Shown in pieces: positions 3,024-52,809 of a stretch of 64,000 bases of DNA. Position 1 is the first letter of the stretch, and each line of letters starts with the position of its first letter. Source of the stretch: Leucoraja ocellata (taxonomy: Eukaryota); contig JAWMAR010000489.1 of the NCBI GenBank assembly GCA_036785375.1, positions 1,240,001 to 1,304,000 on the forward strand, written 5' to 3'. The position numbers and the translations under genes were made by a program. The notes beneath the pieces are model-generated. The model did no database searches, was not told where the DNA came from, and worked only from the letters and a program-made list of their open reading frames with translations.

Positions 3024-4598
3024 CAGTGCCCTCCATAATGTTTGGGACAAAGACCCATCATTTATTTATTTGCTTTTGTCATCCACAATTTGAGATTTGT
3101 AATAGAACAAATCACATGTGGTTAAAGTGCACATTGTCAGATTTTAATAAAGGGTATTTTTATACATTTTGGTTTCACCATGTAGAATGTTTATACATAG
3201 CCCCCCCATTATAGGGCACCATAATATTTGGGACAGAGCAATGCCATGTAAATGAAAGCAGTCGTGTTTAGTATTTTGTTGCATATCCTTTGCATGTAAT
3301 GACTGCTTGAAGTCTGCGACTCATGGACATCACCAGTTGCTGAGTGTCATCTCTGGTGATGCTCTGCCAGGCCTGTATTGTAGCCATCTTTAGCTTTTGC
3401 TTGTTTCGGGGGCCAGTCACCTTCAGTATTCTCTACAACCTATAAAAGGCAAGCTCAATTTGGTTCAGATCAGGTGATTGACTTGGCCACTCAACAATTG
3501 ACCATTTTTTAGCTTTGGAAAACTCCTTTGTTGCTTTAGCAGTATGTTTGGGATCATTGTCTTGCTGTAGAATGAACCGCCGGCCAATGCGTTTTGAGGC
3601 TTTTGCTTGAACATGAGCAGATAGGATGTGTCCATCAATGAAGATAAGTGAGCCAGTACCTTCAGCAGCCATACATGCCCAAGCCATAACACCCCCACCA
3701 CTGTGTTTCACAGATGAGGTGGTATGCTTTGGATCTTGGGCAGTTCCTTCTCTCCTCCATACATTGCTCTTGCCATCACTCTAATATGTTAATCTTGTCT
3801 CATCTGGCCAGAAGACCTTTTTCCAGAACTGTGGTTGCTCTTTTAAGTACTTCTTGGCAAACTGTAACCTGGCCATCCAACTTTTGTGGCTAACCAGTGG
3901 CTTGCATCTTGCAGTGTAGCCTCTGTATTTCTATTCATGAAGTCTTCTGTGGACAGTGGTCATTGACAAATCCACACCTGACTCCTGAGGAATGTTTCTG
4001 ATCTGTCAGACAGGTGTTTGAGGATTTTTCTTTATTATAGAGAGAATTCTTCGGTCATCAGTTGTGGAGGTCTTCCTTGGCCTGCCAGTCCCTTTGCGAT
4101 TAGTAAGCTGACCAGTGCTCTCTTCCATCTTAATGATGTTCCAAACAGTTGATTTTGGTAAGCCTGATGTTTGGCTGATGTCTCTAACAGTTTTATTCTT
4201 GTTTCTCATCATGGCTTCTTTGACTTTCATTGGCACAACGTTGGTCCTTATGTTGATAAACAGCAATAAAAGTTTCCAAAGGTGATGGAAAGACTAGGTA
4301 CTGAGAGCTCCCTTATACCTGCATTAAGGAGGCAATTAAACACACCTGAGCAATTACAAACACCTGTGAAGCCATGTGTTCCAAACATTATGGTGCCCTG
4401 AAATGGGAGGACTATGTATAAACGCAGCTGTAATTTCTACATGGTGAAACTAAAATGTGTAAAAATGCACTTTAATAAAATCTGACAATGTGCACTTTAA
4501 CCAAATGTTTTTTTTTCTATTACAAATCTCAAATAATGGAGTACAGAGGCAAATAAATAAATGATGGGTCTTTGTCCCAAACATTATGGAGGGCATTG
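3024..4598 (-). mobile_element. full-length but defective Tc1-family transposon with about 215-bp IR/DR terminal repeats
   Basis: TA|CAGTGCCCTCCATAATGTTTGGGACAAAG ... CTTTGTCCCAAACATTATGGAGGGCATTG|TA; transposase fragments HTH/GRPRK (ORF 4006..4266) and catalytic QQDNDPKH...WPSQSPDLNQIE (ORF 3433..3711), frameshifted. Confidence 0.95.
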
Positions 4599-5369
4599 TA
4601 TGCAAGCTGTTTTCTCCAAACTTAAAGCTTGGACAATCCCATGGCTCGATGATGCCTCCTTCTCCCTCCCTGCTGCTACTTCTTGTGACTGTTCTTCCCT
4701 CTTCTCACTATTTACCTATATTCTATCAAATTATTTGCCTGTATCGATACTTGAGCATTTAAATAAATGTTTTTTAAAGAACTTTTTGTAGTAATCTTGC
4801 CAATAGAAAGTACAAGGGGGGAGGATGGGGTGGGTAGAAACAGGGGGACAGATATTAGATTGACTGGAGCAACTAGAGGTAGTTCCATTCCATTTTTTAA
4901 GATAATTCATTCTGTGCTTTTAAAGCAAAGCTTGATGAAACACAATACAATTTGGAAAGCAATTAACTGCAACATATACATTTTAACTGTACAGGTTGAA
5001 AAGACAGTTGACAAAACCAAAGTCCTTTAGCACTACCACTGACAAATTGCAGACAAATATCCCAGTTGTATAACAACATTATGTTGTTATGTAACAACAC
5101 ACATTTCAATGATAAGCAGGCAGTATTAAAATACATGATTTTTTTTAAAGATTCATTTAAGTTTAGATTTTGATTAAATTAGTCAATGATAGATTTTTTT
5201 AAAAATCTGTAGGAATTTTCGGTGATTTTGTAGAAAACACTGCAAAACACAATCAGTGCACACTAAGGAATTAATAGAAGAAAATGAATGGGGAAAAAAC
5301 TAACATAATGACATGATTTAAAATCTTTTTGATTTATTAGTGGAAATTAGTGGACTTTATTAGTGAGCC

Positions 5370-5670
5370 TAGTATTTATTGTTCATCTCTTTTATCCCCT
5401 GAAGCGGGACAATTAAGAGTCACCAATTAGGTGGTTGGGAGTCGGATCATATAAGGATGGCAGATTACTGATTCCCTCCCCTGACGGACATTTGCAAGCC
5501 AGGTGGATTTTCTTATGACTGTTTGGGATTTGCTGATGTTTTTGATGTTAGCTTTATAATTCCAGGTTTATTCGGATACTCGAAATCAAATTCACCAGCT
5601 GCTGAAGTGAAATTGATCAATGGTCTAGACTTCTAGGTCCTTGCCCAGTCACTTAATAACTAAACTACAT
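5370..5670 (-). mobile_element. old degraded tRNA-derived SINE (LF-SINE-like chondrichthyan family)
   Basis: Recognisable segments ttaagagtcacca..., taaggatggcagatt, tttataattccagg...aaattcaccagctg; a similar decayed copy at about 58250-58480. Confidence 0.45.
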
Positions 5671-5948
5671 ATCCAAGATGGATGTCAAACCGTTGAGAGG
5701 ATCACTAAAGATTAACTATTAAAACCAATAAATTACTAATATCTCCACAGTTGCAGAATCTCACTCAGCATGTTTAGGCCCATCTGACATTGGTATTGGA
5801 GTGATTTGGCATATTATTTCAATCATTTTATCAGCACACTTTATGAATATTTTGGATTAAATGTTTTTATTCACATTTTTTATTTGATTCAAACTAGAAT
5901 GCGTGAGCATATTCTCAGGATGCTGATTGCAATCTCCATCTCTTTCAG

Positions 5949-6047
5949 ACAATTACATGTCATGGATGAGACTCATGTCATGAATCAAGTGAAGGAAGAT
6001 GTATGTTATGTATCACAAGACTTCTACAAAGACATGGAAATAGCCCA
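5949..6047 (+). CDS. ACTR6: ACTR6 exon (RQLHVMDETHVMNQVKEDVCYVSQDFYKDMEIAQ)
   Basis: tctttcag acceptor, gtaagt donor at 6048; the peptide is the tail of ORF 5806..6051. Confidence 0.96.
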
Positions 6048-7047
6048 GTAAGTACATACTTGGTTGGAACTTTCAATTGACTTCCTTTTAACCTTCACAG
6101 TTGGGATTGCTATTGATGTAAGTTTGACTATTTGGGAGATGGAGATTAGTGAAAGACTAGCTCCATATACCTTGGGTACATTTCTTGCAGCAATAATTTA
6201 ATATGTCTCTTGATGTTATCAATCAATCAATCAATCAAGCACTTTATTCATCCCCGAGGGGCAATTTAAAAGGGCGCATTACAGTAGCTTATCTCTATAT
6301 CTTCCCTGGATTACTGCATTTTCCATCTAAGAAAGTATATGGGGGAAGTCAGAAACAGGCTTGATGAGTGTTCATGTGGAATGGGATAGTCCCTCATATG
6401 TGACCCTTTTTCTTGTGTACCCGAGGGAGGCTTTGTTTACCGGTATCAGTTTTTTAGGGGAACCCGGCTTGATTTCTACTTTGGCTTTATGAGTAGGTGT
6501 TTTAGTTTCCAATAATAGACACCACTACCTCAGAACACATGACTGGGTCTGTAAAATTGAATTGAGATCTATCGAATTTCTCATCATTAGATTAGTTTTT
6601 GAATTTGAAAGGGGGAAGAACAAAGGACCGCTGTGAGGGAGGGAGAAAGGGGGAGATAAAGGTGGATCTGGAGTGAAGAGGAACTGCTGTGAGAGGGAGG
6701 TGGGGAAGAACAACAAAGGAGGACTTGGCAAGGGATACTTTGTAACGTTGTCAGTGCCCTTTACATGGCGATCAATTGCATACCTTGGATATGCATGCAA
6801 ATAATTTTACTGTGACATGTCACAAGTGACAATAAAGTATTCAATTCAATTCGAATTGGTTTCATGTTTATATACTTTCATTAGTTTTTAGTTTCTTGGA
6901 GGGAGAAAGAAGAATCTACCTGAGAATAACAGAGAGCAGGTAACATAGATTCCATAGGGATGCTACAATAATAGTGATCTCATCCTCTGAATGGTAAAGC
7001 CATTGATAATTATGGTCTAAGATTCTACATTCAGGTTTATTGTAACT

Positions 7048-7097
7048 TACTGCAAGATAGATCATTAAAAAATACTGCAAGATAGATCATTAAAAAA
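7048..7097. repeat. 25-bp tandem duplication
   Basis: tactgcaagatagatcattaaaaaa twice. Confidence 0.9.
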
Positions 7098-7278
7098 TTG
7101 GAGGGCTAAAGCATCAATTAGATCACATATATCTCTTCACCAACACATGAACTGACTCAATTTACCTGTAAGAAGACAGCTAATGACTGAAAACGTAAAA
7201 TCAGCAGATCTAAATCCATAGTTATCCATTCTACTTTATAACATTTGGGGGTTTACAACATTTTTTCACTTTCTGCAG

Positions 7279-7357
7279 GCTGAAAGGAGAAGCAAACACT
7301 CTAATGAGAGATTATGTCCTTCCAGACTTCAGCACCATTAAGAAGGGTTTTTGTAAG
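7279..7357 (+). CDS. ACTR6: ACTR6 exon (LKGEANTLMRDYVLPDFSTIKKGFCK)
   Basis: ttctgcag acceptor, gtaaat donor; DYVLPDFSTIKKGFCK is an ARP6 signature; phase matches the flanking exons. Confidence 0.96.
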
Positions 7358-7600
7358 GTAAATCACCTGGAAATGTTCTTGTTTTAATTGTTACGTTATA
7401 TAAGCACTGAACAGTAGCTTTTCATGTGAAAACTATTTTTTATTGCAATATAGATGTATTGCTCATACCATTGATTGCAATGGTAATGTGTAATGTGGGG
7501 CTTCATTGGGAAGGGAGATTATGCTGTCATCTGTCTTGTTGTGCCTGTTTTTTGGGGAATCTCTCAATTGGGTTTGTTTTGCTGATCTTTTCTAATTTAG

Positions 7601-7772
7601 CCTCAAGAGGAAATGGTTTTTAGTGGAAAATACAAGACAAGTGAACAGATTCTTCGGCTAGCTAATGAGAGATTTGCCGTTCCTGAAATCCTCTTTCATC
7701 CTTCTGACATTGGCATTCAGGAGATGGGAATACCAGAAGCAATTGTTCATTCTGTGCAAAGTTTACCTGAAG
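7601..7772 (+). CDS. ACTR6: ACTR6 exon (PQEEMVFSGKYKTSEQILRLANERFAVPEILFHPSDIGIQEMGIPEAIVHSVQSLPE)
   Basis: taatttag acceptor, gtgagg donor; actin-fold motif ERFxVPEILF; ORF 7613..7819. Confidence 0.97.
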
Positions 7773-7827
7773 GTGAGGAGCTGCAGAGTGGAATCCATTT
7801 TTCAAACAGTTCTTTGTGAATATACGT

Positions 7828-7976
7828 AAGAAGGAACTGCAGATGCTGGTTTAAACCAAAGATAGACACAAAAAGCTTTTTCAGTCTGAAGAAAGGTCTC
7901 GATCCGAAACATCATCCATTCCTTCTCTCCAGAGATGCTGCCTGTCCAGCTGAGTTATTCCAGCTTTTTGTGTCTA
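7828..7976. mobile_element. Penelope-derived hammerhead repeat with 5' inversion and 17-bp TSD
   Basis: TCTTTGTGAATATACGT at 7811-7827 and 7977-7993; internal ctgaagaaaggtctcgatccgaaacatc. Confidence 0.85.
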
Positions 7977-8440
7977 TCTTTGTGAATATACGTTATTTAT
8001 GAAGTGTCTTTTGTGCCCTTTTTGGTAAATCTGTATCTGCATTTCCATGTGCCTAAATTATTATCACCTGCATTCAGCAAACACCTATTGCATGCAATTT
8101 ATATACCAGCTTTACTGTTGGAAAATGTTCCATGCATTCCACAAGATTATCATCAAAATAATGTCAACACTGAGCATCTTAGGAGGTATTCTGATAGGTG
8201 TCAATGAAATGGTTTTAAGAATAAGTGAAAGGTGAATGTAGCAGAAGACTTAAGGGAGGGAGATCCAGCATTGAAATCACAGTCGTATTGCTCTGCTGCT
8301 AAAGATCAAATGATGAAAATAGAGGCTGTGCAAGAGGCTGGAATTTGAAGTATAGAATTCTTGGTATGGCTGTGGGGCTGGAAGCTGGGGAAAGGGAGCT
8401 GTAAAGGTATGGGAGGTTATGGAAAAAAATGATAATTTTA

Positions 8441-8940
8441 ATATTGGTATTGGTTTATTATTATGTGTACCAAGATACAGTGAAAAGTTTTTGTTTGCAT
8501 GCTATTCGTTTAATTCAGATAATACTATACATGTATCCTATCACGCCATATATAAGCTCAACAGGTAGAGCAAAGAGAAACATATCAGTTATTTATACCA
8601 AAATATAGTTTTCAGCATTCTAATGTAACAGTTCCAGATAAAAAAAATTCCCATGTCTGCGTTGAGGTAAGTTGAAAAATTGGTACTGTACCCTGGCTGA
8701 TAGGAGAACTGTTCAGAAGTCTGATAACAGAAGGGAAGAAGCTGTCCCTGACTCTGGTGGTATGTGCTTTCAAGCTTTTATATCTTCTGCCTGACAAGTG
8801 CAGGAGTGGAAATGACTGGGGTGGAAAAGATTCTTGATTTTTGCTGGCTGCTTTCCAGAGGCATTGTGAAATGTGGAGGGTATCAGTTGTGAGAGGTCTG
8901 GTCTGTGCGATTGATTGAGCTACATCCACAATTCCCTGCC
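8441..8940 (-). mobile_element. Rex1/Babar-like LINE 3' fragment
   Basis: ORF 8612..8971 contains SGRRYKSLKAHTTRVRDSFFPSVIRLLN, the typical Rex RT-ORF C-terminus; short tandem tail at 8441. Confidence 0.8.
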
Positions 8941-9016
8941 TCAAATCAAGACAGTCTTCCAATGTGCTCATTCTTTGAAGTTATTTAAACCTAATATATA
9001 TATTTGTTTTAACTAG

Positions 9017-12448: not shown

Positions 12449-12480
12449 TATTTCTTAAATTGACAAAGATAGTCTGAAGG

Positions 12481-12700
12481 TAGAAAAAAATGCTGGAGAA
12501 ACTCAGCGGGTGAGGCAGCATGTATGAAGTGAAGGAATAGGTGATGTTTCAAGTCGAGACCCTGCGATCAGTCTGAAGAAGGCTCTCGACCCAAAACGTC
12601 ACCTATTCCTTTGCTCCATAGATGCTACCTCACCCGCTGAGTTTCTCCAGCATTTTTGTCTACCTTTGATTTTTCCAGCATCTGCAGTTCTTTCTTAAAC
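12481..12700. mobile_element. head-to-head palindromic Penelope-derived hammerhead repeat with 15-bp TSD
   Basis: AAGATAGTCTGAAGG at 12466-12480 and 12701-12715; antisense arm 12481-12563 pairs with the sense arm starting at about 12580. Confidence 0.87.
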
Positions 12701-13884
12701 AAGATAGTCTGAAGGAGTGGTTTGGGAAAGTTTATCTAATTAGCAGAGTATCAGAGTTTCAGCATGAAAACATTTGTAATGATTGAAAGTAAAAATCAAT
12801 GTTACTTTGAACCTCAGAGGCCACATGTGTCTAGCATATCAGTTAAGCAAAATTAATCTTTCAAATTGTTCCAAAACACTGGAGATAAAGGTGAGCATTT
12901 ATATTTTTGCAGACTTGAGAGGATTTCACAAAGTTAATATTCAAACTCCAATCTTGCAAATACCTGAGGCTCACGATAATTCTGTACAATAGTCCTGTTA
13001 ACTTAAAATTATGTCATAAACATAGGTTAGCAATCGGTAGCAAAAAAAAATACTTAGATGAATTACCATGTCGATATCTCTGGTACTTTTCAGGTTACAT
13101 GGGATTTAGGAATATCAGTACTTCAATTGTTCTTTCCAAAACATATGTGAAGAGCATTATTCCCAGATGTTTCCCATTCAGGACTTGGCACAGTTAGGAT
13201 CTGGCTTGTGTGGAAGAATGTCAATGGTGTGGGTCAGCAATTTACTCAGCCTGGGCCCCTCTGAGAGCATGAATAAAGGATCTTGAAAAGACATTCAGAA
13301 AATTCTGATAACTTCACCACGATAGTTCAAACTGTTATAGTTATAATATTTCATTCATTGAAAAAATAATTCTGAAACAAGTTGTGTATTAAGTTCCAAT
13401 GTAAATAATTTTGATGTATGCAATGATCTGAATCATATTTATATGTGAAATTAGCAGAACAACTTTCAGTCTTGCGTTCAGTTGTCTGTTTATAAAGGTA
13501 GGAGACCAATGATGCTATCGTCCTCAATGTACACAAAGGTATTTGTGAAACTATGGGATTGATAGCTTTCTAATTGTGCCATCATATCTACTCTGTGTAA
13601 ACCAATTAAACCCACCTTTTTGGGCTTATCATAGAACTATTGACAGCTATTAAATACTTGAAAGTGGAACCTAAATTGTGGGTTAACTGTGCCATTGTTC
13701 AAATGACTGATGTGTGCAGTAAAGGAACTATGAGCGCCAGTGTTTCCTAAATTGCTTTGTTGGTTTTCAGTGTAAAAAATAATTTTCTAAACATGTTTGA
13801 AACCGATTATCACTGCTTTATTCTTAAAATATCAGTGATGAACAAAAGAATGTTAAATTTGAAAACTAAAAATCTTATTATAAA

Positions 13885-19752: not shown

Positions 19753-19937
19753 GGTTACACAAAAAAGCTGGAGAAACTCAGCGGGTGCAGCAGCATCTAT
19801 GGAGCGAAGGAAATAGGCAACGTTTCGGCCCGAAACTTTGCCTATTTCCTTCGCTCCATAGATGCTGCTGCACCCGCTGAGTTCCTCCAGCTTTTTTGTG
19901 TAACCTTCGATTATCCAGCATCTGCAGTTCCTTCTTA
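19753..19937. mobile_element. palindromic Penelope-derived repeat (about 75-bp arms) with 15-bp TSD
   Basis: AACATAATTGGCCAT at 19738-19752 and 19938-19952; inverted arms 19753-19828 / 19830-19905. Confidence 0.9.
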
Positions 19938-20149
19938 AACATAATTGGCCATTGCTGATCCGGGGCAGTTTGGGAAATTATGTTAAATGCTAACCATTGT
20001 CTGTCAAGTGTCCTATAAAATAAATAATTCGCAATTTGCAACAAATATACATTAATACAAGGCATACAAATACAACTGGAAAAAGTGAAAGACCATGTAC
20101 ATAAGACATTAATACAAGGCATACAAATATTTGGTAAATACCTCGGGAA

Positions 20150-23939: not shown

Positions 23940-26085
23940 GAGCAGCCATCCTCAGCGGAAACATGGGAGACGAGCTGGAGTACAGGTGAGATTGAAACAA
24001 TGAGGTTTCAAGTGCTCCCTCTCCAGCATTCTGCTGGTAAATGTACAGGCTACCTCGAACAAACTGGTTGGACTTAAAGCTAGACTTGTGTAAGAAGGAA
24101 CTGCAGATGCTGGTTTAAACCAAAGATAGACACAAAAAACAGGAGTAACTCAGCGGGACAGGCAGCATCTCTGGAGAGATGGAATGGGTAATGTTTCAGG
24201 TCGAGACTGAAGAAGGGTCTCAACCTGAAATGTCACCCATTTCTTCTCTCCAGAGATGCTGCCTGTCCCACCCGCTGAGTTACTCCAGCTTTTGTGTTTA
24301 AAGCTAGACTTATCCACCTTAGAGGGACTGCTGTATGCTCTGTGCTCACTCTTCCTCACCCAACAGTGCCATTCAATCAGAGGGCTTCTCGCTACACCAG
24401 ATGGACTGCAGAGCATCTTCGGGTAAGGTTAGGGTACTTTATAATTAACTCCACATGATGCTCAGACGTGTTGGTCCCGACGAGCTCCTGCTTCCCAGAA
24501 TTGGAATATGGTAGTGGTGTTGTTTTCCCTACCACCTGCCATGGAAATGCCCTTGGGCTGTCCTGACAACAGTCCACATTCCACTCCAGGATGATGCTAA
24601 GCTTGCACTTGAGGTACTACACACCATCGCCAATAGCCTTGAAATCAAGTGCCCTGAGGCCCCGGTCATAATAACCAGGGACTCAAATCAGGCCAACCTC
24701 GGGTATGTCCTGCCAAAATAATATCAGCACGTCTCCTGCTCAATCAGAGATCTAAACATCCTCATCCACCGTTACACAACCATCAGGAACACATGCTGCT
24801 GCAATCCCACTTTGGTAAATGTGATCACTGGCCTGCGCTTTTACTCCCTGTTTACAAACAGTAACTGAAGCGGGAGAATCCGGTTCAGAAAGTCGTACAG
24901 TTTTGGTCCGAGGAAACAGATGAGATACTTTGTGACTGCCACGAGTCGGAGGACTGATCCTTATTCAAGGACTCAGCAGCTGAGCAGGATGAATGAACCT
25001 GCTGTCACAGACGTCATCAACAAGTGTGTAAAGGACCGTGTACCAAAGACGACAATACATGTTTCCCAACTGGAAACGATGAATGAACCAAGTTACACTC
25101 CCAGGTGAAGTCGAAGTCTGCAGCATTCAAGTCAAACAATCCCGAGCAGTACAAGAAATCCATAATGACCTTAACACACCTATTAAGGATGCAGAGGGGA
25201 AATTGTGGGCCAAAGCAATGATCTGGACACCCACAGATTGTGACAGGGTAACGGCGAGCATCATTGGCGACAACTGATTGCTCCCAATGAACTCAATGCA
25301 GCTACTCTCGCTTTCAACAGAAGGCTGGTGGGGGAGGACGTCACCCACCCTGCCAGTTTCGGGTGCACCCGTACCAACAGTTACCCATGGCAGATGCGAG
25401 GTTGGCCTTGCCGAGTTAATCCGTGGGCCCGGCTGGAGTCCCTGACCCTGGCCTCATGACTTGGTGTGGATCAACTGGCAGAGGTATTCACAGACATCTT
25501 TAACCTCTCACTGCTCCATTCAGAGGTGCCAACCTGCTTCAAGAAGACCACTATCATTCCAGTAGCAAAGAAAAGTGAGGTAGCATGTCTGAATGACTAC
25601 CATACAATGGCTTTGATATCCACCATTATTTACCCTCAAAGTGATGGTGCACATTAACCCCAGCCTCCCAGCCTGCCTTGATCAACCCGCAGTTTACTTA
25701 CAGTCACAAAGTGTCCGCAGCAGACATCATCTTCCTGGTTCTAAATGACCCCAGTCATTTCTCCTTCTCCCTGCTCCCATCTGGCAGACAATACAGAAGC
25801 TTAAAGCATTCACCCCCAGAGTGAGGAACAGCTTCTTCCATTTTGTTATCAGCTTTTGAATGATTCTTTCATAAGCCAGAGTACTGTCAAATTCATCTCT
25901 ACGCCATTATGGACAATGGACATTGTCTGCGGAACTGATGGACCACAATGCTAAGAACATTCTACTCATTGTGCTTGAGTTTGACTTAAATGTATTTATG
26001 TTTGGATTACCAGATTTATTTTTGGATAGTAAGTGAAACAAAGCTTTTCACTGTACTTCGTGCCCATGACATGAACTGAACCTAA
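23940..26085 (+). mobile_element. degraded Rex1/Babar-like LINE (APE endonuclease and RT remnants)
   Basis: Remnants PSILLVNVQ; [35 protein letters not shown] (ORF 25466..25657); SGRQYRSL C-terminal motif; interrupted by a hammerhead repeat. Confidence 0.8.
24088..24297. mobile_element. palindromic Penelope-derived hammerhead repeat nested in the LINE, 14-bp TSD
   Basis: TTAAAGCTAGACTT at 24074-24087 and 24298-24311; inversion point near 24205. Confidence 0.87.
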
Positions 26086-33380: not shown

Positions 33381-33471
33381 CTATAATTGTAAAGATTAGA
33401 AAATACCAAATCATACTTTGTCTTTAGTACTATAAAAATGAATTCTGCAGAACAGAAAATATGGTCTGTTA

Positions 33472-33560
33472 TACAGAAAAGCTGGAGAAACTCAGCGGGT
33501 GCAGCAGCATCTATGGAGCGAAGGAAATAGGCAACGTTTCGGGCCGAAACCCTTCTTCAG
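33472..33560 (-). mobile_element. Penelope-derived repeat with intact minimal hammerhead core on the - strand
   Basis: - strand reads CTGAAGAAGGGTTTCGGCCCGAAACGTTGCC. Confidence 0.8.
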
Positions 33561-35012: not shown

Positions 35013-35164
35013 CTGAAATATCAAGAGTTTGAGAGCTTAGTACCATTATTTCATTTAAGAATGGCATTTGTGAAAGCCCTTAATTCAACACTTTTAACTG
35101 GTGTTCATAGGAATTTGAACACCCTTGTACATGACCATTCACAAAAAGAGAGAGGTATGGATGT

Positions 35165-35348
35165 TTAAGAAAGAACTGCAGATGCTGGAATAATCGAAGG
35201 AAGACAAAATGCTGGAGAACATCCGCGGGTGAGGCAGCATCTATGGAGAGAAGGAATTGGCGATGTTTTGGACCCGAAACGTCGCCAATTCCTTCTCTCC
35301 ATAGATGCTGCCTCACCCGCGGAGTTTCGCCAGCATTTTTCGTCTACC
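35165..35348. mobile_element. palindromic Penelope-derived repeat with 14-bp TSD
   Basis: AGAGGTA(T/C)GGATGT at 35151-35164 and 35349-35362; ORFs on both strands begin with the same peptide MRQHLWREGIGDV, confirming the inverted repeat. Confidence 0.88.
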
Positions 35349-50880: not shown

Positions 50881-50977
50881 TCATACATTCCACGTCGGGA
50901 TCTCCCCAGAAGAATTCTTGGCAGTCACTGCAAGTTCGTCCTCCAAATCCAGCCAGGCATTGACACTGCCCTGTAAA
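50881..50977 (-). CDS. LAMB1: LAMB1 exon ([32 protein letters not shown])
   Basis: ccccag acceptor, gtaagt donor, 97 nt; near-identical to the LAMB1 LE repeat. Confidence 0.95.
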
Positions 50978-51495
50978 CTGGGGAAAATATACTATATTCA
51001 ATTCATATTCATTATTTTTAATTATTGGAAGACAAGATGATCAAAATGTAAACTCTGCAAACAACCCCTTGATTTTGTCTAGCACTTAAGATGAACAAAA
51101 TACACTTCCAATGGTGTGCACATTCCTGGGAGCAAATCTTGCTGAGAAAACAAGACCTTTAGCTTACATATTCACAAAATAAGGGGTCAGCCATTTAATA
51201 ATGAAAAGAAGAATTTCTTCTGACTGGCTTCCAAATCTTTGGAATTCTCTAATTGAGGGTACTATTGGGGCAGAAGCATTAAATAGACTTAATGAAATAC
51301 AATTTTCACTCTTAACAGGAAATCGGCCTCTTGATTAAGTGAGGAGACATAAATTATCTATTTGTAACAGAGACGGGTATACAAGGGATCTAAAATAGGT
51401 ATTTAAACAGGGTGTGAGCCAAGATAAACTGTTACAATTAACAGAGGGGCCAAGAACAATGGGGCATAGAATGGAAGTGACATCGATAGGACCAA

Positions 51496-51918
51496 GCGTA
51501 GGCTTAGCGATCGCCCAACACCTCCGCTCAGTTTGCAATAACCAATCTGATCGCCCAATGGCTCAGCACTTCAACACCCCCTCCCATTCCAAATACGACC
51601 TTTTTGTCCTGGGCCTCCTCCATGGCCAGAGTGAGTCCAACTGCAAATTGGAGGAGCAGCACCTCATATTTTGCTTGGGTAGTTTACACCCCAACGTTAT
51701 GAACATTGACCTTCAATTTCAGGTAGTCCTTGCTTTCTCCCTCTTTCCCCTCCCCAGCTCTCCCACAGCCCATGGTCTCCGCCTCTTCCTTTCTTCTTCC
51801 CGCTCCCCCCACCCCCACATCAGTCTGAAGAAGGGTCTCGACCCGAAACGTCACCTATTCCTTCGCTCCATAGATGCTGCCTCACCCGCTGAGTTACTCT
51901 GTATTGTGTCTACCTTCA
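51496..51918 (+). mobile_element. 5'-truncated Penelope-like retroelement: GIY-YIG endonuclease C-terminus plus pseudo-LTR
   Basis: QHLRSVCNNQSDRPMAQHFNTPSH...VLGLLH...KLEEQHLIFCLGSLHPNVMN (ORF 51414..51953); 10-bp direct repeat ATAGGACCAA at 51486-51495 and 51919-51928. Confidence 0.88.
51821..51856 (+). ncRNA. minimal type I hammerhead ribozyme motif of the Penelope element
   Basis: CUGAAGA (51825-31), extra A, stem II GGGUC/GACCC, GAAA (51845-48), palindromic stem III ACGU, predicted cleavage after GUC (51852). Stem I is only about 2 bp. Confidence 0.7.
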
Positions 51919-52328
51919 ATAGGACCAACATTACTTCTTTCAAAATACAGTGATTAAAGCCTTGGATGGTATGGGTGGTGGCTTAAACTGAAGCATTGAA
52001 ATGCTATTTCATCAAGTATCTGAAATCAAAGAATGTGCAGCGATGGGGAGGAGAACGTTGAAGCGTGGTGACTACTTGGATTGCTTTTGGATCAAGAGAG
52101 TATGGACATCATGGCCAGAATCTTGTGCTTCTGTGTCACAAACATTCCACGACCATTAAAGCAATGAATTTTCTACAATAAACCGGAGTTTTACAATCAG
52201 TTCTTAAGCCTTCCTTCTCTTCAATCCTTGTTCCCAATCATTGGGCAGTGCCATAAATGACCAATTACCTCAGAACATGTGACAATAATAAGCTAAATTG
52301 TTTTTTTTCAATAAAGAAATGCTCTCAC

Positions 52329-52540
52329 CTCATTGCAAGATGCTGCACGTGAGTGGACTTCATTGCAATTGCAGAGTTCACAGCCTGTTCCACTTGCCAG
52401 CTTCCAGGTATTAGGTGCGCAGTGATCACATGTTAAACCAACCACATTGGAAAGGCAAGGACATTGACCAGTGGTTTGATTGCAATGGCATTCATCTGCT
52501 GATGGGCACTGTATTGTGCCCAAGTAATTACAGACACACA
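52329..52540 (-). CDS. LAMB1: LAMB1 exon, LE repeats (CVCNYLGTIQCPSADECHCNQTTGQCPCLSNVVGLTCDHCAPNTWKLASGTGCELCNCNEVHSRAASCNE)
   Basis: ttttag acceptor, gtgaga donor; ORF 52308..52541. Confidence 0.95.
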
Positions 52541-52809
52541 CTAAAATTTAAATAAGAGACACACACTTATTACTTAAAGTCATATAAACTATACACAACA
52601 ATGCTAATGAGTTAATATTCTGAATAAATATAAAAAATAAATCTAGCTCAATGAAAATAAAGCATACTTTGGATAAGTTGTTTTTGACAATGTGGCAGTA
52701 AATTCAACTTGGCAACAGAAATCTGCACCTTGAAGTTCTATTCCAGATTTGATAAACTAATACAAACTTATGTTCCACGTAGATTCGCAAACGATATTAA
52801 ATGGCAGTA

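Follow-up and report, generated by a model that had tools for sequence, protein, structure and literature searches.

The window analysed here, which is the whole stretch of 64,000 nucleotides of Leucoraja ocellata DNA, carries on its minus strand, between 15740 and 63633, the 3' two thirds of laminin beta-1, with 17 exons matching P0020 at 96-100% and one more placed by hand. The LAMB1 exons at 52326..52544 (ends approximate) and 50881..50977, both on the minus strand, lie upstream and downstream in the direction of the gene and enclose an intron of 1.35 kb. Within this intron, at 51480-51921 of the plus strand, a reading of the sequence together with the family alignment places the 5'-truncated pLTR end of a Penelope-like element (PLE), with an endonuclease remnant and a hammerhead motif. 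As LAMB1 runs on the minus strand, the copy is antisense to the gene and the host pre-mRNA contains its reverse complement. A DDE_3 (Tc1/mariner-type) transposase fragment is located elsewhere in the window (3433-3780, minus strand, Pfam E 7.9e-7).

The sequence ATAGGACCAA is present twice, at 51486-95 and 51919-28, and a longer alignment of 51483-95 with 51916-28 gives 12 matches in 13; the repeat is probably a target-site duplication, and the typical duplication in the family is mostly 12-13 bp long. The 10-bp duplication of the original prediction is exact and can be extended in this way, but it does not simply flank the insertion, since homology to the family begins at 51480, i.e. 6 nt to the left of the exact 10-mer, and the duplication overlaps the element at both junctions. 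In the left copy (51483..51495, plus strand, 13 bp with one mismatch) the final 6 nt also match the element, giving 5' microhomology, and in the right copy (51916..51928, plus strand) the initial 5 nt are shared with the element tail, giving 3' microhomology. Such an overlap on both sides is what microhomology during priming and at the 5' joint would produce. 5' junctions with microhomology have been reported for rotifer PLEs in the accessible part of PMC3846280.

The C-terminal part of a GIY-YIG endonuclease occupies 51480..51726 (plus strand); it is frameshifted and truncated inside the YIG motif, with the family stop TAG at 51724-26, and the GIY and YIG motifs themselves have been removed from the window peptide by the 5' truncation. 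At 51710-51726 and its relatives, a variant shorter by 2 nt before the endonuclease stop is found in many long copies, which leads to read-through into the pLTR and may mark a sublineage. The stop is followed by a pyrimidine-rich pLTR tract (about 51727..51819, plus strand), likely promoter-proximal DNA, with CACCC/GC-box-like runs immediately before the hammerhead. Next comes an Initiator-like TCAGTC (51820..51825, plus strand). It matches the Initiator consensus if A51822 is taken as +1, and this A, where short copies of the family begin, is the predicted transcription start. The minimal type I hammerhead (51823..51854, plus strand, putative cut after C51852) passes into the pLTR tail (51855..51920, plus strand), i.e. 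the 5' UTR of the next tandem unit, whose end coincides with the first of the two 3' ends that copies prefer, located 85-98 nt past C51825. Compared with the majority of 28 close relatives, the copy differs at 27 of 442 positions (about 6%) and at none over 51819-84. As the same perfection over 40 nt is found in 12 of 139 copies, the intact hammerhead at 51819-84 is read as a consequence of how this copy was selected in the original prediction.

Searches of the 3.44-Gb genome of the same species with DNA and protein revealed large families, whose members have a common 3' region and varied 5' truncation points; the best DNA matches are 87-90% identical, one duplicate aside. The window peptide alone matched no Pfam family. 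It is 76% identical over 72 aa to the endonuclease of the longer copy L006, which scores above the Pfam cut-off for GIY-YIG (24 vs 22.6 bits, E 4.9e-5), and the Penelope GIY-YIG fragment proposed at the outset is confirmed by this match. The endonuclease of longer copies contains a CxxC plus two histidines (CCHH), and upstream walking from it reached reverse transcriptase (RT) motifs. In the sister-subfamily ORF of L149 RVT_1 was matched with E 1.1e-4, below the Pfam cut-off, and a PDB search with the RT returned no matches. RT and endonuclease are joined by a C-X4-C-X2-C linker in L006, L032, L036 and L149. L145 is a pLTR-ORF-pLTR-ORF tandem with a period of 4.06 kb, in which each pLTR is laid out as endonuclease end, pyrimidine tract, hammerhead and tail, and an ATG lies about 170 nt after the core. 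As to the full-length partner that had been anticipated, longer copies do encode both RT and GIY-YIG, but none of those inspected is intact; in searches scoring the best 40 candidates, all 18 long loci had an interrupted ORF, and a family that is autonomous today is not supported by them.

The family is probably, to judge from its sequence, an EN+ Penelope-like element of the Neptune clade. The assignment is based on the zinc-finger linker motif, which points to Neptune or Nematis, since Nematis shares the linker of Neptune according to the accessible part of PMC8557442. In the Neptune-clade EN+ PLEs described there (Craig et al. 2021, PMC8557442) the same RT, CX2-5CxxC linker and C-terminal GIY-YIG with CCHH are found, as are the partial tandems, the inverted 5'-truncated partners and the optional 30-40-bp tail. 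Unlike Neptune as presented in that part of the paper, no intact copy occurs among those inspected here, and the ORF has a long low-complexity stretch before the RT. Neptune is one of two clades widespread in vertebrates, as stated in the accessible text of 10.64898/2026.07.22.740005. The closest named proteins are skate proteins with 79% and 75% identity. Several annotated skate and shark proteins (P0003, P0011 and P0018; receptor-transporting protein 3-like, neuromedin-U receptor 1) contain endonuclease sequence, i.e. pieces of the PLE that were exonised or mis-annotated. On small contigs there are many elements (L147-L162) that are full-length and near-identical but broken, each facing an inverted sister-subfamily element and flanked by a LINE-like ORF or a CA/GT-rich satellite; they look like an amplified segment rather than independent insertions.

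All elements of the minimal type I hammerhead predicted after the pyrimidine tract were found in place: the core CTGAAGA (51825-31), an unpaired A51832, GAAA (51845-48), the palindrome ACGT (51848-51) and C51852. Stem II comprises 4 bp (GGGT-CTCG-ACCC at 51833-44, pairing 51833-36 with 51841-44) and stem I only 2 bp, GT/AC (51823-24 with 51853-54). The motif fits the definition of PMC4209133 in its core CUGANGA...GAAA...UH, the unpaired base before stem II, G10.1-C11.1 and the palindromic 15.2-16.2. Helix I departs from the 4-5 bp of that definition, as it has 2 bp and its third and fourth pairs are mismatched across 137 copies. The descriptor CTGAWGA-N11-15-GAAACGTC returned 106,193 genome matches against 37 with the reversed control. 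An Rfam scan of the window gave no match to a hammerhead family.

The motif closely resembles the minimal hammerheads (min-HHRs) of metazoan PLE pLTRs in PMC4209133 (Cervera and De la Pena 2014), the accessible part of which gives the same core, unpaired base before stem II, G10.1-C11.1, palindromic 15.2-16.2 without loop 3 and pLTR location, and likewise thousands of dispersed solo and opposite-strand copies. The differences from that account are quantitative. Stem II is 4 bp here and 7-8 bp in Schistosoma, stem I is 2 bp here and 4-5 bp in the published motifs (2 bp there only in D. virilis), and core matches number about 106,000 here against 4,000-9,000 in coelacanth and Xenopus. The accessible text and two supplements of PMC4209133 make no mention of cartilaginous fish. 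The published min-HHRs did not cleave as monomers and cleaved weakly as dimers (PMC4209133, accessible part). The ribozyme of a lizard PLE cleaves only with protein and is dispensable for insertion (PMC11167929).

Among 137 random copies the core is kept in 58, core and stem II in 28, ACGU in addition in 16, and stem I as well in at most 12, which does not support the proposal that the repeats carry a working self-cleaving core. Covariation of stem II across genomic copies, looked for in 80 of 149 aligned copies, did not appear: none of the four pairs had changed on both sides and the score equalled that of shuffles, a comparison of low power made on decayed copies of few masters. Subfamily changes in the hammerhead pairs are one-sided (U-A to U-G), and subfamily C differs only at tolerated positions (UUCG loop, U-G wobbles in stems I and II, C17 to U). 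In predicted folding the hammerhead is not the lowest-energy structure of the monomer or the dimer, the best fold of the dimer being a different one, and the pairing probability of stem I does not exceed 0.03. Doubt about monomer activity was expressed from the beginning on account of the 2-bp stem I, and the folding models point the same way; this copy is likely an inactive fossil. For cleavage in the parent element, the hammerhead would need either to dimerise or to be bound by the element's protein. It was also considered that the upstream tract silences the ribozyme and that a start at A51822 frees it, but the folding effect seen in this copy was absent in four of five others and the idea was rejected.

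The short repeats of the window belong to the end of the same element, as had been proposed. Large contigs, sampled arbitrarily for 800 kb of DNA, yielded 254 tail-bearing matches, about 1 per 3.1 kb, which extrapolates to roughly a million relatives in an assembly often holding both haplotypes. Many locus pairs, such as L001/L002, are doubled at about 98% identity along their whole length; both haplotypes are therefore probably in the assembly and counts would be inflated up to twofold. In 1.2 Mb of arbitrarily chosen DNA, with copies required to reach +75 (positions relative to C51825) and to be clear of stretch edges, 377 copies comprised 169 short ones, 121 with an inverted 5' partner, 70 long and 17 tandem. 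The short repeats form at least three subfamilies with differing upstream tracts and diagnostic bases, which does not support the original prediction that this copy is their source. They are colinear with the pLTR from the first base, without a private 5' head or promoter of the kind expected in a SINE.

Of the 169 short non-inverted copies 117 start at -5..+5 of C51825, at TCAGTC rather than at the cut site, with an end rate of 0.09 per nt (-5..0) against 0.003 (+31..+60), a 30-fold difference replicated in a later 400 kb; the division of short from long at -5 relies on a pyrimidine threshold with a background of 5.6%. Duplications bound 31 of the 169, compared with 0-1 in shuffled pairs, and in 29 of the 31 the start lies at -4..+5. 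The pile-up of starts is present in all three subfamilies and both 3' classes, and in four other species loose ends also accumulate at 51820-23. These starts scatter across about 10 nt, more than one start site alone would give. At the 3' side, the 377 copies end at +85-98 (152 copies) or +116-132 (150), with 1 between these clusters, 67 at +75-84 and 7 beyond; the two clusters match the two-site "tail" of PLEs. Near the cut site (+26..+30) 7 of 220 starts were found, 0.006 per nt against about 0.003, and they are not counted as a peak because those in the first 800 kb proved on inspection to come from divergent copies or from copies with internal deletions; a small cleaved fraction among the templates may nevertheless exist. 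Hundreds of copies keep the whole ribozyme at their insertion ends, with no convincing peak at the cut site.

An additional G is often found at the joint. It precedes AGTCTG in 7,244 of 17,138 genome matches (42% vs 28% expected) and, by hand count among the matches listed, GTCTG in 53 of 100, about 27 of these being GG and possibly inversion joints; starts at C3 are preceded by G in 22 of 100 matches listed, also counted by hand, with about 30% expected. An extra G is a known trace of reverse transcription of the cap. Inversion junctions, a variant subfamily or a nick-site preference could also be sources of so modest an excess.

The reading given here with good confidence is that the locus is a 5'-truncated pLTR fossil, probably of Neptune type, antisense to LAMB1 and likely inserted by target-primed reverse transcription, and that the short copies are its siblings, likely generated by run-off of capped pLTR RNA. 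The copy at 51480-51921 would have been inserted by copying that began at the first preferred tail site, ended within the endonuclease gene at a microhomology and left a 10-13-bp duplication. The far more numerous copies of 95-130 nt would result from RT priming at either of the two tail sites, close to where the uncleaved pLTR transcript begins, and then running off its capped end at A51822. Run-off of uncleaved capped transcripts is inferred from the boundary at TCAGTC and the extra G. A second class of templates, reading through into the 3' pLTR, is needed as 70 of the 377 copies, this one included, pass the start point, and such templates would account for longer copies like 51480-51921. 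The shared 5' boundary likely marks the start of element RNA. The most specific form of this reading is put forward tentatively, with a little less than even confidence: the promoter fires at the Initiator three bases before the hammerhead, and RT, primed 90-125 nt downstream, integrates "strong-stop" cDNA of uncleaved RNA. With firing at this position stem I could never exceed 2-3 bp. An Inr-like sequence has been noted in the rotifer pLTR (PMC3846280, accessible part). In Drosophila Penelope (D. virilis) transcription starts 46 bp upstream of the intron, away from the hammerhead (PMC2377424, accessible part), which by analogy would count against a start at the hammerhead.

The alternative that survives best, unlikely but still to be taken seriously, is that the shared boundary is not a transcript end and represents a site of stalling or template switching, set by RNA structure, the C-rich tract or cDNA fold-back at stem II. 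It is favoured by the scatter of starts over about 10 nt, by the 121 fold-backs among 377 copies, many of them joined within stem II, and by predicted pairing of the purine core with the tail end (+118-125) in full-tail copies. Copies without the pairing tail, however, show a pile-up at least as strong (66/86 vs 51/83), the pile-up is located past stem II and not at its 3' foot, and G is in excess at -3 and -2 with no such excess at 0.

Two further explanations appear improbable. The pyrimidine tract could be an intron (donor 51723, acceptor 51823) as in Drosophila Penelope, with splicing setting the boundary and rebuilding stem I; the terminal CAG of the tract directly adjoins stem I, and the intron of D. 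virilis stops at the 5' end of helix I (PMC4209133, accessible part). The spliced junction nevertheless has 24 genome matches, and the upstream exon was present in none of the 20 inspected, on which ground the intron reading of 51727..51819 was rejected; no such joint occurs among the 15 listed of 43 joints in RNA-like contigs, and splicing would leave stem I at 2 bp as both ends read CAG. An equally small chance is given to the short repeats being an independent SINE-like or retrozyme-like family spread from short masters, with this copy as link or source. Huge copy number, fixed ends and duplications agree with such a family, and animal retrozymes derive from pLTRs (10.64898/2026.07.22.740005, accessible text). 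Against it, the same boundary is shared by three subfamilies, all of them with long copies as well, a private 5' head is absent, the one tandem array examined (L259) is without the CUGAAGA half, and this copy differs from the family majority by about 6%. It is very improbable that this copy has an active hammerhead which selection maintains for a role in the host: 66 nt are identical to the family majority and the insertion is retained in several species, but it is oriented antisense to the LAMB1 pre-mRNA, the nearest same-strand copies (4.4 kb and 10.6 kb off) are both damaged, the palindrome of the duplicate L002 is broken and predicted pairing of stem I is at most 0.03.

PLE hammerheads and pLTR-derived repeats have already been published, and the interest of the run-off reading lies in the mapping of ends at the family level; the locus itself is an ordinary fossil, probably inert. 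A close parallel is PAc, the Anolis Poseidon element (Frangieh et al. 2024, PMC11167929), in which, as here, two 3' ends are preferred downstream of the hammerhead, about 30 nt from each other, and uncleaved RNA is the apparent template. The end pattern gives in vivo support to that in vitro result of uncleaved RNA as template. The start codon lies inside the hammerhead in PAc and about 170 nt downstream here, and a fixed 5' boundary at the hammerhead, unlike here, is not described in the accessible part of PMC11167929. Animal non-LTR retrozymes (Li et al. 2026, 10.64898/2026.07.22.740005) are likewise pLTR-derived, hammerhead-bearing and non-coding, and were reported in one chondrichthyan; in the accessible text they consist of at least two tandem units with whole hammerheads, whereas this copy is solo. 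The literature consulted contained no account of an elasmobranch PLE nor a direct report of a cap or start site at a pLTR hammerhead, and one supplement of PMC4209133 may list shark or ray motifs. If run-off from a start at the Initiator is the true reading, no separate SINE is needed for a Penelope element to fill a vertebrate genome with SINE-sized pieces. The tentative strong-stop form, if true, would make about a million SINE-sized insertions direct by-products of the full element, in which its start site, its cap and both priming sites are recorded in vivo, and would place hammerhead cleavage off the insertion path.

The assembly contains a duplicate of the copy's locus (L002, 98% identical) in which the palindrome reads ACAU and is broken. 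Contigs from three other species run across both flanks into the copy, and since they cross both junctions the insertion predates the split of these species. An empty insertion site was not found; three species carry the copy and the fourth is uninformative on the 5' side.

Of 20 tail-bearing matches in the window, 12 could be aligned over the core and only the copy at 51480-51921 is complete. The subfamily C copy at 33470-33560 (minus strand), oriented sense to the LAMB1 pre-mRNA, has an intact core, a UUCG-capped stem II and a GUU triplet, and is without the 5' strand of stem I. Two fold-back pairs of the repeat in the window give microRNA-precursor matches in Rfam, which were discarded as spurious. 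L259 (G000:C17:7000001-7010000) is a tandem array with a unit of about 60 nt, consisting of the hammerhead 3' half and tail without CUGAAGA, and is a minisatellite born from the pLTR. Head-to-head fold-back repeat pairs are located at 19756-19942, 35161-35348, 12477-12701 and 24091-24300, and the stretch from stem II to GAAAC of subfamily C, which is nearly palindromic, is the joint site of several fold-back pairs.
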